UHGV virus genome: UHGV-2000170
Reading direction: 5' to 3' (one strand)
Source: a virus
Length of the DNA stretch: 42,855 bases
The number at the start of each line of letters is the position of its first letter. Positions within the stretch are counted from its first letter, which is position 1. The position numbers were made by a program. Positions 9,001 to 18,000 of the stretch are shown piece after piece.

Positions 9001-12000
9001 TTTTTTGTGTCATGAGCAGCATTACGCCCAAATTATGGTGGGGCGTGCAGGGCCAACTTCGGTTGGGCCGGGTTCTTTGGTGACCGGTATTTCCACCCCT
9101 GTACGTCTCACCACCAATAAGGTCGTGGAAAGCCTTGGTGGTGAGTTATTAAAAATCACCAAAGAGGCTGCCATCATGGCTACGATCCCAACCCTCACTC
9201 AACCTGAAATTGCCATCGTTGATGGTCAGGCTGTTACTTCATCCCTGGCTGTTGCCAACTTCTTCTCCAAACGTCATGACGATGTACTGAAAAAGATCCG
9301 CACGCTTGAATGTTCCGCATCATTCACTGCCCGCAATTTTTCGGTGAGTGATTACACCGATTGCACAGGCCGCAAACTACCTTGCTATCAAATAACCCGC
9401 GACGGCTTTGCGTTTCTTGCTATGGGTTTCACGGGTAAACGTGCTGCCCAGTTCAAAGAGGCATACATCAATGCCTTTAACCAGATGGAGAAACAGCTTT
9501 CAAAGCCCGCTGTACCGAGCGACGTTGCACATAACGCCAGCGTTCTCTGTTCCTACATTTCATCAATTCATCAGGTCTGGCTGCAGCAGCTTTATCCTAT
9601 GTTGGCAAAAGCCGAATCTCCGCTGGCTGTTAGCTTGTATGACTATATTAATGATGCTTCGGCACTGGCCTGCCTCATAAATTTGTCGCTGAACCCTTCA
9701 GAGGTAAGGGGGCGCAAATGATCCGGAATATTTTCAAACGGTTTACCAATCAGACTTTCCGTTGTCCTCGTCCGGGTCAGTGGTACACCACACCTGCAGG
9801 GCATGTTCTACGTGTTAGCCTGGTGGACCGTGAATGTCAGAAGGTGATTTGTGAACCGCTGGGCCGTAATTACCGCGTCAGTATGCCGCTTATAACCTTT
9901 CGCTCCGGAAAAAACATGAAGCATCTCGGAGGTGCAGCATGAGTATGGAGCTGATGGTTAAAGCGATGAAAATTCGAGTGGGTAATCCATTGCGAAAACT
10001 GGTTCTGATCAAGCTGGCTGATAATGCCAGCGATCAGGGTGAGTGCTGGCCCAGCTACCAGCATATTGCTGACCAGTGCGAGATTAGCAAACGTTCTGTG
10101 ATGAATCATATTGCGGCCCTTTGTGAGTCCGGGCTGGTAAAAAAAGTCACCCGGAAAGGTGAAAAAGGTAACTCAAGTAATATCTATCTCCTTCATCTGG
10201 ATGGTGCAGGAGATTCACTAGGGGGTAGTGCAAATAATTCACTATCTGGTGCAGCAAATTCACCAGGTAGTGCAGGAGTTGCACTAGGGGGTAGTGCAGG
10301 AGATTCACCCAGAACCAGTCACTCTTTTGAACCAGTCAAAGAACCAGTCAATGAACCAATAGCTGTTGGTGCATCTGCTGATGAGTCTGTGCGAGTTCGT
10401 TCAAACCGACCGGAATACTCTCCGGAGTTTGAGCAGGCATGGCTGGTATATCCCAAACGTGCTGGTGGCAATTCAAAATCTGCAGCCTTCAAAGCCTGGA
10501 AAGCCCGTTTGAATGAGGGGGTAAACCCCGAAACCATGCTGGAAGGTGTGAAACGCTATGCGGGCTGGGTATCTGCGATGGGTAACAGCGGCACACAATT
10601 TGTGAAACAGGCTGTCACGTTCTTTGGTCCGGATCGTCATTTCGAAGAATCCTGGGAAGTTCCTGCGGTATCTGCAGCCAGACGTGAGGACCCGTACTTC
10701 AAAGCCAGTTACGACAACGTGGACTACAGCCAGATCCCGGCAGGATTCAGGGGGTGATCATGAGTCTTTTGAATGAAGTTCAGAAATTCATTGAAGCCCA
10801 TCCGGGGTGTACTTCCGGAGACATTGCGGATGCTTTTGCAGGTTACTCACGGCAGCGCGTTCTGCAGTCAGCAAGCAAGTTACGTCAGAGTGGGCGTGTG
10901 GCTCACCGTTGTGAAGGGGATACACGCAGACATTTCCCGCGCCAGACAAAGATATCGCCGGAGGCGGAACGGCAACCAGTTCGTGAAACCAGACCTGTGC
11001 GCAATTTCTATGTCGGCACTAACGACCCGCGGGAGATTTTATGCCTGACCCGCCAGGCTGAAGAACTGGAGTCCAGGGGCTTATACCGTCGTGCTGCAAC
11101 GGTGTGGATGGCGGCATTCCGTGAAAGCCACTCCCTGCCAGAACGAAACAATTTTCTGGCGCGTCGTGAGCAGTGTTTACGGAAAAGCAGCAAGCGCGCT
11201 GTATCGGGTGATGAGTGGTATCTGTCAGGGAATTACGTGGGGGCTTAATGAGTAATAAATATTGCCAGGAGCTGGTGGAACTGCGGAACAAACCAGCCCA
11301 TGAACTGAAGGAAGTGGGCGATCAGTGGCGCACGCCGGACAACATTTTCTGGGGAATTAACACCCTGTTTGGTCCGTTTGTTCTGGATCTGTTCACTGAC
11401 GGTGATAACGCCAAATGTGCTGCGTATTACACGGCGGAAGACAACGCGCTGGCGCATGACTGGTCAGAACGCCTTGCGGAGCTTAAAGGTGCTGCCTTTG
11501 GAAATCCCCCATACAGCCGCGCCAGTCAGCATGAGGGGCAATACATCACCGGCATGCGTTACATCATGAAGCATGCCAGTGCCATGCGTGATAAGGGCGG
11601 GCGCTATGTTTTCCTGATCAAAGCTGCCACCAGCGAAGTGTGGTGGCCGGAAGATGCAGATCATATTGCTTTTATTCGCGGGCGTATTGGTTTTGAACTG
11701 CCTGCCTGGTTTATCCCGAAGGATGAGAAGCAGGTGCCGACAGGCGCTTTCTTCGCTGGTGCTATTGCTGTTTTCGACAAGACCTGGAAGGGACCGGCAA
11801 TCAGCTACATCGGGCGCGATGAACTTGAGGCATGTGGTGAGGCGTTTCTGGCGCAGGTTCGCCTGCAGGCGGAAAAGCTGGTCAGGGAGATGGCGGCATG
11901 ACGACGTTAACTCAATGCCAGCAGCAGGTGCTGGATATGCTGATTTCTTATCAGAAAGAGCGTGGCTTCCCGCCAACCAATCAGGAGGTGGCAACCATGC

Positions 12001-15000: not shown

Positions 15001-18000
15001 TAAGGTTTGTGGGCGTTGCAATGGAAACCGGTTTAGCCGTTTACCAACCACACTGGCGCGGCTTTATGTCCAGAAGCTGGTACCAGACCTGACGGATTAT
15101 CAGTGGTACAAAGGATATGCAGATGTCATTGATAAACTGGTTACAAAGTGCTGGCAGGAAGAAGCATATGCAGAGATACAATTGAGAAAGGTGACAAGAT
15201 AAATGGTTTTCGCCGAAGATGACGACATGATGCTTGCGTTTTTCAAAAAATATGGATAAGATTTTCACAACGATGGGCTTTGTATGTCTACCGTTGATAA
15301 GATTTAAGAACCCGCCACTGAGCGGGTTTTTTTGTACCTGTAAACTTGGTGCAGTACAGTAAACACGCTGGTGTTCGTGAATACTGACTTTTTATCTTGC
15401 TGGCTTTTTAGACAAGAGTTATTGGTATGTCATGTTAACCAGAAGGGAAAAAGACATGCTAAAACAGCAAGATATGACAGAAGCCGCCGCCGCAGTCCTT
15501 CATTTCTTACCTGCTGACAAGTGGGTAACGCCACGCATGATGACGAGAACTACCGGAGTAAGCGAAGCCCGGTGCCAGTTAATACTGACTCAGTTAGTTA
15601 TGGCGGGTCTGGCGAAGGATAACGGCGGGTACGGGAATAAATTCAGACGCTGCCAGTAATGGCGGTTTCCTGCTGTGAAAATGGGCGGCTGGTGGGTGTT
15701 GGTAGCACCTGCCAGCCATTCGCTCATGCTTACTGGTCACAAGCGAACCACGGCCCACTGCTTTAGCGCAAAAGCAGAGTGAGCCTACCAGAGTTACGCT
15801 TACTGATCCATGAAAAATACTGTAAAAATAAACAGTGTTGATTTAATCAACGCTGATTGCCTGCATTTTATTCAGTCCCTGCCTGATGATTCCATTGACC
15901 TGATTGTTACCGATCCGCCGTACTTCAAGGTGAAACCCAACGGTTGGGACAATCAGTGGAAAGGGGACGAAGATTACATTAAGTGGCTGGACCACTGTCT
16001 GGCCCAGTTCTGGCGGGTGTTGAAACCTTCCGGAAGCCTTTACCTGTTCTGTGGACATCGCCTGGCATCTGATATTGAGATCATGATGCGTGAACGTTTC
16101 AACGTGCTTAACCATATCATCTGGGCGAAGCCGTCCGGACGTTGGAATGGGTGTAATAAAGAAAGTCTGCGTGCATATTTTCCTGCCACAGAGCGCGTTC
16201 TGTTTGCTGAACATTACCAGGGGCCATATCGCGGCAAAAGTGACGGCTATGCGGCAAAAGAAAGGGAACTCAAACAGCACATAATGGCACCGCTGATATC
16301 GTATTTCAGGGATGCTCGTGCCGAACTGGGTATAACGGCAAAACAAATTGCCGAAGCCACAGGTAAGAAAAATATGGTTTCCCACTGGTTTGGTGCCAGT
16401 CAGTGGCAGTTGCCGAATGAGGCTGACTATCGGAAGTTACAGGCACTGTTTTCCCGTATAGCGGCAGAGAAGTTTCAGGAACAACAACTGGAACAACCAC
16501 ACCACCAGCTGGTGGCATCTTATGATTCACTGAATCGCAAATATTCTGAATTGCTGGATGAGTTTAAATCTCTCCGGCGCTATTTCTCCGTATCAGTCTC
16601 CGTGCCTTATACCGATGTCTGGATGCATAAACCCGTTCAGTTCTACCCGGGTAAACATCCGTGTGAGAAACCGGCGGATATGCTCAGGCAAATAATCAAT
16701 GCCAGTAGTCGACCTGGTGATCTGGTTGCTGATTTTTTTATGGGATCCGGTTCCACAATAAAAGCAGCAATGGCGCTGGGGCGTCGGGCCTTAGGTGTTG
16801 AGCTTGAGTCAGAGCGGTTTAACCAGACAGTGAAAGAGATAAACGAGCTGGTGGGGAAATAATTTGGTGGCCACGTCAGGTGGCCTTTTTATTTCCATTA
16901 CACAGCACCCGCATCTGCGAGGTGGGGTTATGAAATCCATGGATAAGTTAACAACGGGTGTCGCCTATGGCACCTCAGCAGGTAGTGCCGGTTACTGGTT
17001 TTTACAGCTGCTCGATAAAGTCACGCCCTCACAGTGGGCAGCAATAGGTGTGCTGGGTAGCCTGGTATTTGGCCTGCTGACGTACCTGACAAACCTTTAT
17101 TTCAAGATTAAAGAAGATAAGCGCAAGGCTGCGAGAGGTGAATAATGCCTCCATCATTACGAAAAGCAGTTGCTGCTGCTATTGGTGGCGGAGCAATTGC
17201 TATAGCATCAGTGTTAATCACTGGCCCAAGTGGTGACGATGGCCTGGAAGGTGTCAGCTACATACCATACAAAGATATCGTTGGCGTATGGACTGTATGT
17301 CACGGACACACCGGAAAAGACATCATGCTCGGTAAAACGTATACCGAAGCAGAATGCAAAGCCCTCCTGAATAAAGACCTTGCCACGGTTGCCAGACAAA
17401 TTAACCCGTACATCAAAGTCGATATACCGGAAACAACGCGCGGCGCTCTTTACTCGTTCGTCTACAACGTGGGTGCTGGCAATTTCAGAACATCGACGCT
17501 TCTTCGCAAAATAAACCAGGGCGATATCAAAGGCGCATGTGACCAGCTACGTCGCTGGATATACGCTGGCGGTAAGCAATGGAAAGGCCTGATGACTCGT
17601 CGTGAGATTGAGCGTGAAGTCTGTTTGTGGGGGCAACAATGAGCAGAGTAACCGCGATTATCTCCGCTCTGGTTATCTGCATCATCGTCTGCCTGTCGTG
17701 GGCGGTCAATCATTACCGTGATAACGCCATCGCCTACAAAGAACAGCGAGATAAAAAAGTCAGTGAGCTGAAGCAGGCGACCGCCACCATTACTGACATG
17801 CAGCAGCGCCAGCGTTCTGCTGATGCACTCGATGCTAAATACACGAAGGAGTTAGCTGATGCGAAAGCTGAAAATGATGCTCTTCGGCGCAAGCTTGATA
17901 ATGGTGGTCGGGTGTTCGTCAAAGGAAAATGCCCTGTGCCATCCTCAGCCGAAACCTCCAGCGCCTCCGGCATGGGCAATGATGCCACCGTCGAACTCTC

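Follow-up and report, generated by a model that had tools for sequence, protein, structure and literature searches.

A conserved folded leader precedes an M.EcoGII-family adenine methyltransferase gene in the late region of a lambdoid prophage

Gene order around the two methyltransferase genes

The stretch of DNA analyzed here (UHGV-2000170, 42,855 nucleotides, called the window below) is a lambdoid prophage of the attaching-effacing E. coli type. An earlier note on this DNA had placed two orphan DNA methyltransferase genes in it, the second of them in the slot between the late antiterminator gene Q and the holin gene. Both genes lie where they had been placed, and profile searches assign the first (MT1) to PF05869 and TIGR01712 and the second (MT2) to PF01555. 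The relevant features are as follows.

11248-11901, + strand: MT1, phage Dam-family N6-adenine methyltransferase, 217 aa (PF05869, E = 1e-45; TIGR01712)
14450-15202, + strand: Q, late antiterminator of the QuuQ/PF03589 type with a DnaJ-like zinc finger (PF03589, E = 6e-53)
15234-15262, + strand: candidate pR'-like late promoter, proposed from reading the sequence (TTGCGT, 17-nt spacer, TAAGAT)
15309-15333, + strand: tR'-like intrinsic terminator after Q (AACCCGC-CACTGA-GCGGGTTTTTTT; AACCCGC/GCGGGTT stem, then a T7 run)
15456-15659, + strand: predicted small winged-helix protein, probably 67 aa, PHROG 331 (homolog starts, AlphaFold2, Foldseek)
15649-15666, + strand: hairpin across the small-ORF stop codon (GCTGCC-AGTAAT-GGCGGT)
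15674-15809, + strand: conserved structured leader RNA of MT2, 136 nt (covariance model R1, covariation)
15810-16862, + strand: MT2, beta-class DPPY...FxGxG N6-adenine methyltransferase of the M.EcoGI/M.EcoGII clade, 350 aa (PF01555, E = 9e-43)
16869-16895, + strand: intrinsic terminator 3' of MT2, ahead of the holin gene (GGCCAC-GTCAG-GTGGCC at 16869-16885, then TTTTTATTT)
16927-18106, + strand: lysis cassette with S21-type pinholin starting at 16927, SAR endolysin, and Rz/Rz1 (PF04971, E = 2e-35; PF00959, E = 2e-45)

From Q onward, the order is Q, terminator, small ORF, leader, MT2, terminator, and holin, and this order is common to Ayreon, SfV, cdtI, 1720a-02, N15, and phiKO2, although their Q and holin types differ; in cdtI, SfV, and Ayreon, extra genes are present as well. 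The tR'-like terminator corresponds to inverted repeat I3, and a terminator is annotated at the equivalent position in Ayreon and SfV. The pR'-like candidate 5' of it did not reach the consensus-scan threshold, and this region is kept in the related locus L021. The terminator between MT2 and the holin gene, which is annotated at the equivalent position in Ayreon, SfV, N15, and phiKO2, is the downstream boundary of a moron. With tR' on one side and this terminator and the holin gene on the other, the MT2 cassette is placed and bounded as lambdoid Q-to-S morons are, in agreement with the earlier note. The note's further statement that stx occupies the same slot is borne out by phage 1720a-02, in which the small ORF and the methyltransferase gene lie directly between Q and stx2.

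No sigma-70-like promoter was recognizable between tR' and MT2 in a consensus scan. A weak conserved TTGCTG-N17-TATCTG-like motif is present 5' of the small ORF, and a CCAGAGTTA-like motif is found 5' of both the small ORF and MT2. The hairpin across the small-ORF stop codon is weak in the window; its counterparts in 1720a-02, SfV, L014, and L031 carry a T-run and are terminator-like. As the earlier note had stated for restriction endonucleases, no nuclease or defense partner was identified among the tested neighbors, and the cassette and its neighbors in related loci have no nuclease either. The cassette of small ORF and MT2 is present in 1151 of 5426 complete E. coli genomes; it is very common and less unusual than was first implied.

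Family and specificity of MT1 and MT2

MT1 belongs to the early-right (replication/nin) operon, where its neighbors are a PerC-like gene on one side and a LexA-DBD-like gene on the other. It has an NPPY catalytic motif (FGNPPYS), and its scores against the PF05869 Dam profile (156 bits, cutoff 28) and the TIGR01712 phage_N6A_met equivalog (255 bits, cutoff 97) identify it as a phage Dam-type enzyme, an ordinary gene for E. coli prophages. Stx2 phage 1720a-02 has a protein 99% identical to MT1, in the same setting of PerC-like, methyltransferase, LexA-like, and RusA genes. Searches of the literature returned no paper on a close homolog, and sequence searches returned no related solved structure. 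The HP1 and T1 Dam enzymes, members of the same family (PF05869/TIGR01712), methylate GATC. The same target is listed for M.EcoVT2Dam, also of the phage Dam family (Table 3, PMC6602927). By analogy, MT1 probably methylates a short specific site; to name GATC as that site would be a guess from family precedent, as MT1 and T1 Dam share only 25% identity.

MT2 has the beta-class order of motifs, with TDPPYF at residues 34-39 (DPPY at 35-38, motif IV), a central TRD, and FFMGSGST at residues 309-316 (motif I), and the match to PF01555 spans residues 29-341. It is 80% identical to M.EcoGII across 349 aa with 2 gap positions, a few of the mismatches being reading errors in the machine-read supplement from which the M.EcoGII sequence was taken, and this full-length similarity includes the TRD and the charged linker. 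Identity to the reconstructed ancestors, again with no large gaps, is 88.5% for Anc291, 86% for Anc289, and 71% for SUPREM; the 1720a-02 methyltransferase is 80% identical to MT2 and 93% identical to M.EcoGII. On the basis of these alignments, MT2 belongs to the M.EcoGI/M.EcoGII clade of non-specific adenine methyltransferases and is no unknown orphan.

In vitro, M.EcoGII can methylate as much as 99% of dA whatever the context, and its constitutive expression is toxic (PMC5778455). Both DNA and RNA are substrates of M.EcoGII and of each of the five ancestors whose expression and purification succeeded, both of the ancestors that were profiled (Anc291 and SUPREM) retain non-specificity, and the nearest site-specific relative, M.PflMI, is only 27% identical (PMC11551740). 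Homologs are also routinely tagged as nonspecific in methylome papers. By analogy with these enzymes, MT2 would methylate adenine in any context, with a narrower specificity possible given the 20% of positions that differ. The earlier note had expected a target motif to be found for MT2 and had taken the lack of a new methylated motif as evidence against a function. Since MT2 falls in the non-specific clade, no new motif is expected in a lysogen, and such a test would wrongly reject a true function.

The winged-helix gene and the leader ahead of MT2

The earlier note had described a 75-aa, winged-helix-like ORF beginning at position 15432. That position is the start of the longest ORF, but the start conserved among homologs is the ATG at 15456, preceded by an SD-like GAAGGGA at 15442-15448, and the protein is probably the 67-aa form that begins there. 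The fold assignment is upheld: an AlphaFold2 model (pLDDT 88) has an H-H-H-wing topology, its Foldseek matches are TrmBL2, CymR, Zalpha (TM 0.83), SelB WH, and IclR, and from this model we are confident that the protein is a winged helix; matches in Pfam are weak and limited to TrmB, MarR, and DprA_WH. The ORF is also conserved, a point that the earlier note had singled out for checking. Most of its 169 homologs begin with MLKQQDMTE, and the third helix (RCQLILTQL) is invariant. It is found 5' of the methyltransferase gene in 138 of 174 related loci, and the other 36 have the leader and the methyltransferase gene without it; in this cassette, the gene is a frequent accessory that can be dispensed with. 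The protein falls in PHROG 331, a family of unknown function, and may be a nucleic-acid-binding regulator or a cofactor. We found no earlier description of a small winged-helix gene ahead of this methyltransferase.

The small ORF and MT2 are separated by 150 nt, and within this interval is a conserved element that the earlier note did not mention. Its predicted helices, all on the + strand, are as follows.

State A: P1, 15682-15686 with 15753-15757; P1a, 15687-15698 with 15706-15717
State A: P2, 15719-15724 with 15742-15747; P3, 15758-15764 with 15771-15777
State B (alternative): P4, 15735-15745 with 15797-15808; P3x, 15752-15758 with 15779-15785

Covariance model R1 has a single match per locus, with 161 bits in the window. 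Among the leader pairs, 21 of 30 are changed on both sides, a value reached by 0 of 500 shuffles, and the same is true of 14 of 22 pairs of the alternative fold (again 0 of 500). When the partners were slid as a control, the paired fraction fell to 29-51%. The core-helix energies of the two folds are nearly equal (-42.0 versus -41.8 kcal/mol). Nucleotide identity in the leader is 0.78, compared with 0.39 for synonymous-like sites in the gene next to it; leader identity is still 0.60-0.73 where the methyltransferase proteins are only 62-66% identical. The leader is linked to the methyltransferase gene in all 115 testable viral contigs; in Photorhabdus and Xenorhabdus relatives, the leader is shorter and is not matched by the covariance model. 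A search of Rfam 15 (4227 families) returned no match at gathering score in the window and none over 15660-15810 even at E<=10.

The leader is therefore conserved, covarying, and bistable, and the model of two exchanging states derives from covariation and computed energies. The start of MT2 has no Shine-Dalgarno sequence and follows an in-frame TGA by 6 nt, and the pairing of state B takes up the 12 nt immediately 5' of the AUG, which would hide the start region. Compensatory changes, a fixed site before one gene, and alternative folds at the start are the marks of a cis-regulatory leader, and this one probably gates translation of MT2. We lean toward the view that 15674-15809 represents an undescribed class of bistable cis-regulatory RNA that gates translation of toxic, non-specific M.EcoGII-family methyltransferases in Enterobacterales prophages of the lambdoid and N15-like kinds. 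Such a leader might sense a metabolite (SAM or SAH), temperature, or the co-encoded winged-helix protein. If this is correct, the way in which a widely used enzyme is naturally controlled has escaped notice. We found no earlier description of a conserved folded leader before this methyltransferase, and neither PMC5778455 nor PMC11551740 mentions the leader, the small ORF, or the location in the late operon. The two methyltransferase genes, then, are ordinary for E. coli prophages; what is new, as far as we have found, is that a gene of the MT2 type has, wherever testable, a conserved folded leader ahead of it and usually a small winged-helix gene as well.

Other readings of this region were weighed against a leader that gates translation. 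The 150-nt region might instead be a coding uORF (15681-15782), a protein-binding palindrome that acts at the DNA level, or recently shared sequence, with no RNA switch at all. In many loci, an ATG- or GTG-initiated ORF does cross hairpin P1a, which is itself a near-perfect inverted repeat, and many of the leader loci are in closely related enterobacterial prophages. However, the uORF peptide is unconserved, with frames that shift among homologs and arm changes that are compensatory rather than synonymous; in ∼20 sequences, pairs are kept as G-U on the sense strand, a change that would not be tolerated in a DNA palindrome; and the identity values and slid-partner controls given above also count against this set of explanations, which we regard as improbable. 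The earlier note had also proposed that the small ORF could be a controller-type regulator, which would switch MT2 transcription as occurs in restriction-modification. Like the C-proteins of type II systems, its product is small and of a DNA-binding-type fold, and its gene lies immediately 5' of a modification gene; the product is also basic, its gene is on the same strand as MT2, and the invariant third helix and the motif shared by the upstream regions of the small ORF and MT2 would fit such a role. C-proteins, however, have an Xre-type HTH and are tied to a restriction gene, whereas the small protein is predicted to be a winged helix, matches no controller in Pfam, NCBIfam, or PADLOC, has no nuclease partner, and is missing from about one-fifth of otherwise identical cassettes. 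Its distant homolog gp51 of N15 and phiKO2 (75 aa, winged helix, PHROG 331, ∼25% identity) is upstream of an annotated late promoter, in another transcription unit, whereas the small ORF of the window is between tR' and the methyltransferase gene. We did not retain the C-protein assignment, and a controller of this kind is unlikely.

Expression, role, and relation to known systems

Because MT2 lies behind tR', its transcription is expected only with Q, in late lytic growth. This late, Q-dependent expression, which the earlier note had also proposed, is suggested by the geometry of the locus and fits the silence of homologs in lysogens: M.EcoGI and M.EcoGII are not expressed in C227-11 (PMC5778455), and M.EcoMV, 99% identical to M.EcoGI, is silent in EC958 by RT-PCR, these reports being on homologs of the prophage gene studied here. 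A terminator downstream, as MT2 has, is usual for morons with a promoter of their own and counts against Q dependence, as does the weak conserved TTGCTG-N17-TATCTG-like motif 5' of the small ORF.

We consider it likely that the prophage uses two adenine methyltransferases at different times, with MT1 expressed early from the early-right operon and MT2 acting late, non-specifically, and under control of its leader. MT2 would be transcribed only once Q renders RNA polymerase resistant to the terminator, and its translation, which lacks a Shine-Dalgarno sequence, would be gated by a leader with two folds. This late timing would confine an activity that is toxic to the host to cells that are already doomed. 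Progeny genomes would be covered with m6A before packaging, and DNA coated in this way should be less vulnerable to many of the m6A-sensitive restriction systems that it meets in its next host. The most likely job of MT2 is to mark progeny DNA throughout with m6A, and a protective role would follow from it; our literature search found no demonstration of such a role for M.EcoGII-type enzymes. Heavy m6A could also expose the phage to methylation-dependent nucleases.

The earlier note had raised the alternative that the methyltransferases alter host gene expression. On this reading, MT2 would be a site-specific orphan with its own motif, acting as an epigenetic regulator of host genes in the lysogen. 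Orphan phage methyltransferases can regulate host genes (M.EcoGIII is a cited example), MT2 is unlike M.EcoGII at 20% of its residues, and terminators on both sides are typical of autonomously expressed morons. Set against this are the retention of non-specific activity in the clade down to 70% identity, the position of MT2 behind tR' with no recognizable promoter, the absence of both expression and a kinetic signature for its homologs in lysogens, and the deleterious effect of constitutive M.EcoGII, and we consider regulation of this kind quite improbable. The substrate of MT2 in the cell could also be RNA rather than DNA, with m6A placed in host or phage transcripts. In vitro, M.EcoGII accepts single-stranded RNA and DNA:RNA hybrids for methylation, and ancestral variants methylate them as much as 12-fold better, but as an account of the physiological substrate we judge this highly improbable.

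Known systems resemble this locus in part. M.EcoGII and M.EcoGI, from a prophage of E. coli O104:H4 C227-11, match MT2 in length, motif order, and TRD, although MT2 is nearer to Anc291 than to M.EcoGII; the 1720a-02 enzyme, which is close to M.EcoGII, is likewise found in the arrangement Q, small ORF, leader, methyltransferase. Like translational riboswitches, RNA thermometers, and attenuator-like leaders, the MT2 leader has several helices, some of which cannot form together, and one of these covers the start region; it differs from riboswitch-type leaders in having no Rfam match, no Shine-Dalgarno sequence to mask, and no known ligand. The linear plasmid-prophages N15 and phiKO2 encode gp52, 56-60% identical to MT2. 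Ahead of this gene are an annotated late promoter, a terminator, and the leader found before MT2, with scores of 62 and 85 bits, and after it, as after MT2, come a terminator and the holin gene. Finally, stx and other morons of the lambdoid Q-S slot share with the MT2 cassette its location, its bounding terminators, and its variability between similar phages: Ayreon and mEp460 carry ∼0.7 kb extra in this slot, and 1720a-02 and Stx2c phages hold the methyltransferase cassette and stx together in it. Cargo of the stx type acts on the eukaryotic host, whereas the MT2 cargo acts on DNA and has its own conserved RNA leader.

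Gene order and a probable early methyltransferase

An ORF map and Pfam scans of the window gave a right arm in the standard lambdoid order and bore out the coordinates and motifs of the two DNA methyltransferase genes picked out in an earlier note, here called MT1 (NPPY) and MT2 (DPPY).

Features of the window
Left end: integrase, cI-like repressor and CII-like gene
8930-9006: isrK-like RNA, at an Ash/Rha-type antirepressor (region 8930-9721, +)
9031-9118: C4 antisense RNA; it and the isrK-like RNA lie directly 5' of, and inside the long ORF of, that antirepressor
9939-10757: O-like replication gene
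10754-11248 (+): PerC-like gene, the 5' neighbor of MT1
11248-11901: MT1
11898-12224 (+): stand-alone LexA DNA-binding-domain-like protein, the 3' neighbor of MT1
Between the LexA-like gene and the next entry: RusA, then a KilA-N protein
13441-14436: DUF968/HNH
14450-15202: Q, the late antiterminator, PF03589 type
15309-15333: intrinsic terminator after Q (tR'-like; tR' below)
15456-15659: small winged-helix ORF (67 aa), 3' of Q
15674-15809: leader of MT2 (136 nt)
15810-16862: MT2
16869-16885: intrinsic terminator between MT2 and the holin
16927-17145: S21-type holin, then SAR endolysin, Rz/Rz1 and terminase
39579-40268 (+): nleG, type III effector gene, right end, in low-GC DNA past the tail genes
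41279-41477: IS009 RNA match, between nleG and cif in the low-GC DNA
42007 to window end (+): cif, type III effector gene, right end, in the same low-GC DNA

Because nleG and cif lie at the right end, we assign the host to the attaching-effacing type of E. coli. No tRNAs were found between Q and the holin, and scanning the interval from tR' to MT2 for consensus sigma-70 promoters gave no match. With the antirepressor, the isrK-like and C4 RNAs make up an immI-type module like that of P1/P7, here carried by a lambdoid prophage. Adjoining the integrase, a low-GC island (0.34-0.37) holds a 417-aa ORF (1397-2650, +) whose sole match was PHROG 30399, of unknown function, with no match in Pfam or PADLOC; it is a candidate moron or defense gene.

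MT1 matched PF05869 (E 1e-45) and the NCBIfam equivalog TIGR01712, "phage N-6-adenine-methyltransferase" (255 bits, cutoff 97). Its product is 99% identical to a protein of the Stx2 phage 1720a-02, in which the gene neighborhood is the same; the trio of PerC-like activator homolog, MT1, and LexA-domain protein recurs in Stx2 phages. The Dam enzymes of HP1 and T1 are specific for GATC, and GATC is also tabulated for another Dam-family enzyme, M.EcoVT2Dam (PMC6602927). T1 Dam shares only 25% identity with MT1. GATC is the family precedent and may be the MT1 target, and MT1 is probably an early, site-specific, Dam-type methyltransferase. A PDB sequence search found no solved structure related to MT1, and a literature search on EcoVT2Dam, T1Dam, and PF05869 returned nothing useful. 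PHROG 33262 matched MT1 over positions 283-492 and, over positions 2-275, a PAPS-reductase-like protein of the window (3471-4466, -) that also matched the defense profiles SspD (5e-15) and BrxP. This double match hints at fused or co-clustered proteins of the two types; in both members sampled (Enc34 and KPN N137), the protein was stand-alone and no fusion was present.

A probable late methyltransferase and its slot

M.EcoGII is a 349-aa beta-class enzyme (DPPY...FxGxG) from "a well-defined prophage" and one of a very large family in E. coli, in which M.EcoGI is nearly identical to it and the methyltransferase of phage 1720a-02 resembles it (PMC5778455). The enzyme methylates adenines whatever their context; its constitutive expression is toxic, and the lysogen carries it unexpressed (PMC5778455). 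When the M.EcoGII sequence from the SUPREM supplement was compared with MT2, the two were 80% identical over their full length. The reconstructed ancestors Anc291, Anc289, and SUPREM (Anc284) were 88.5, 86, and 71% identical to MT2, respectively, and the 1720a-02 enzyme shared 80% identity with MT2 and 93% with M.EcoGII. All testable ancestors methylated both DNA and RNA, Anc291 and SUPREM keep the non-specificity, and the nearest site-specific enzyme, M.PflMI, shows just 27% identity (PMC11551740). As its relatives M.EcoGII, Anc291, and SUPREM are non-specific and M.PflMI is so distant, MT2 is placed, by sequence, within a clade in which every tested member is non-specific.

In the methylome literature, homologs of the MT2 type are called "nonspecific" and inactive in lysogens (PMC6602927), and M.EcoMV of the ST131 strain EC958 was silent by RT-PCR. 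The lack of a new methylated motif, which the earlier note named as a refutation of its reading, is thus the expected outcome for a non-specific clade whose homologs are silent in lysogens. A PDB sequence search with MT2 returned only distant beta-class enzymes (RsrI, MboIIA, and CcrM), and literature searches on its peptide strings, and on EcoGII with induction or anti-restriction, gave nothing useful. A paper on helper-embedded satellites proved unrelated to the MT2 gene.

The stretch 15300-16930, which holds the small ORF, the leader, and MT2 (the cassette), was present at ≥80% coverage in 1151 of 5426 complete E. coli genomes, and also in phages Ayreon, mEp460, SfV (orf47/orf48), cdtI (orf55/orf56), and others; Stx2c phages match most of the region. 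Phages bearing the cassette differ in Q (cdtI) and in holin (SfV and phiNP), and Ayreon and mEp460 carry ∼0.7 kb of additional genes between tR' and the small ORF. From this variation around it, we conclude that the cassette acts as a mobile moron whose slot is prone to recombination, and that the Q-to-holin slot takes stacked morons. The insertions of Ayreon (locus L001, 2433-3116, against 15340-15430 of the window) and mEp460 add two small ORFs and a further terminator after tR'. In a survey of 182 related loci, drawn from one-genome-per-species contigs and viral contigs, the small ORF lay 5' of the methyltransferase in 138 of 174 testable loci. With small query panels that give lower bounds, Q was 5' of it in at least 108 of 153 loci, and a lysis gene was within 1.2 kb 3' of it in at least 97 of 151. 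The two methylases of the earlier note were thus correctly observed, but such genes are common and already characterized at family level, and their interpretation needed correction.

A leader RNA with two alternative folds

The 150 nt from the small ORF to MT2 are more conserved than the small ORF itself, and, among 80 genome loci spanning many genera, the leader was recognizable in ∼60, as well as in N15 and phiKO2. Its nucleotide identity to the window averaged 0.78, versus 0.39 for the fourfold-like third positions in the neighboring gene, and was still 0.60-0.73 where protein identity was just 62-66%. RNAalifold and manual inspection gave a fold (state A) with a closing helix P1 (UGGGC/GCCCA), a long hairpin P1a, a helix P2 (UUCGCU/AGCGAA), and a hairpin P3. 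A covariance model built from 56 sequences and searched against 589 kb produced exactly one match per locus, each directly 5' of the methyltransferase start, with scores of 161 bits in the window (a single match), 62 in N15, and 85 in phiKO2; the shorter leaders of Photorhabdus and Xenorhabdus were missed. A pattern scan of viral contigs found 120 loci, in 115 of which the methyltransferase starts 53-54 nt 3' of the GGCCCA motif, the other 5 being cut by a contig end. The leader is linked to M.EcoGII-type methyltransferase genes in every testable locus.

In the model alignment, 84.8% of cells were paired in state A and 21 of 30 pairs had changed on both sides; none of 500 shuffles scored as high, and sliding the partners lowered pairing to 29-51%. 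In about 20 sequences, one pair is retained as a sense-strand G-U, which favors an RNA over a DNA palindrome. In state B, a fold that excludes state A, helix P4 joins GGUCACAAGCG to CGCUUACUGAUC, the 12 nt directly 5' of the AUG, and helix P3x joins GGCCCAC to GUGAGCC; this fold was 89% paired with double changes in 14 of 22 pairs, and again 0 of 500 shuffles were as high. By computation the two folds are about equally stable: the energies of states A and B were -42.0 and -41.8 kcal/mol for the core helices, and -55.4 and -56.5 kcal/mol as constrained minimum free energies.

No Shine-Dalgarno sequence precedes MT2, and 6 nt 5' of its start there is an in-frame TGA. A uORF begins in P1, and its peptide is not conserved. 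An intrinsic terminator stands directly 5' of the leader in loci without the small ORF; in loci with it, a hairpin across its stop codon replaces that terminator. A GATC (Dam) site at 15805-15808, directly 5' of the MT2 start codon, is kept almost without exception in the leader alignment, and the strand that pairs with it holds a second GATC or GGTC. Rfam gave no match to the leader, at gathering score or at E≤10; the leader RNA and the winged-helix companion were not found described in Rfam or the literature consulted.

The winged-helix companion and a proposed picture

A database search found 169 homologs of the small ORF, in Escherichia, Salmonella, Klebsiella, Erwinia, Kosakonia, and others, some of which carry the annotation TrmB-family or DprA-like winged helix. 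They share a conserved start, MLKQQDMTE, which corresponds to the ATG at 15456 behind a Shine-Dalgarno-like GAAGGGA, and an invariant RCQLILTQL(V)MAGL stretch. AlphaFold2 with 27 sequences (pLDDT 88) predicted a helix-helix-helix-wing fold, and the Foldseek matches were winged-helix domains (TrmBL2, CymR, Zalpha with TM 0.83, SelB, and IclR). No controller or defense model matched, and from its fold and context we rejected the controller-type regulator (C-protein) suggested in the earlier note. A Zalpha-like protein was also considered and rejected: the TM of 0.83 comes from the winged-helix fold in general, the sequences share only 15-16% identity, and the residues that we take to be the Zalpha contacts are absent.

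About one-fifth of loci lack the small ORF and keep the remainder of the cassette; one of them (L021) reads Q, pR'/tR', leader, methyltransferase. Other morons or Q itself occupy its place in such loci, and no N15-type gp51 was found within 2.5 kb. The small proteins of the window and 1720a-02 are only 53% identical, against 80% for the methyltransferases. We conclude that the small ORF is a real, conserved, and optional partner of the cassette.

Several further features were observed around this gene. C40, in the third helix, is invariant, and a second, C-terminal cysteine, in the wing, is kept in both tail variants (RRCQ and FGCY), which might point to a redox or metal site. A CCAGAGTTA-like motif occurs 5' of the small ORF (15413-15421, CAAGAGTTA) and 5' of MT2 (15788-15796, CCAGAGTTA), the former copy within a block, CTTGCTG-N10-ACCAGAGTTATCTGTATGTCA, conserved in related loci; the motif could be a weak promoter or a shared binding site. 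An inverted repeat (15385-15398 with 15443-15456) would allow sequence just 3' of tR' to base-pair with the Shine-Dalgarno and start of the small ORF; phiNP-type loci permit a perfect 9-bp pairing, AUGUCUUUU/AAAAGACAU.

In the picture that we infer, MT1 would be made early and is probably site-specific and Dam-type, and MT2 would be an M.EcoGII-type, non-specific enzyme made late under Q, its toxic activity held back until the last part of lytic growth. Progeny DNA would probably be blanketed with m6A that may be protective, the bistable leader would tune MT2 translation, and the winged-helix protein may add an optional further layer. M.EcoGII serves as a standard footprinting reagent for chromatin and RNA, and its biological function is called unknown in the SUPREM paper (PMC11551740). 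The present analysis places its family beside lysis genes, at times beside stx, in what would be a Q-dependent late operon. The leader and the winged-helix partner offer handles on the timing of the enzyme, the restraint of a cell-toxic activity, and m6A protection of progeny phage. For the approximately one-fifth of E. coli genomes concerned, the annotation "orphan methylase, motif unknown" can become "M.EcoGII-type, non-specific, silent in lysogens."

The order in 1720a-02 is Q, small ORF, methyltransferase, stx2, and that in N15 and phiKO2 is late promoter, terminator, methyltransferase (56-60% identity), terminator, holin. N15 gp51, which falls with the window small protein in PHROG 331 at ∼25% identity, sits 5' of the annotated late promoter.
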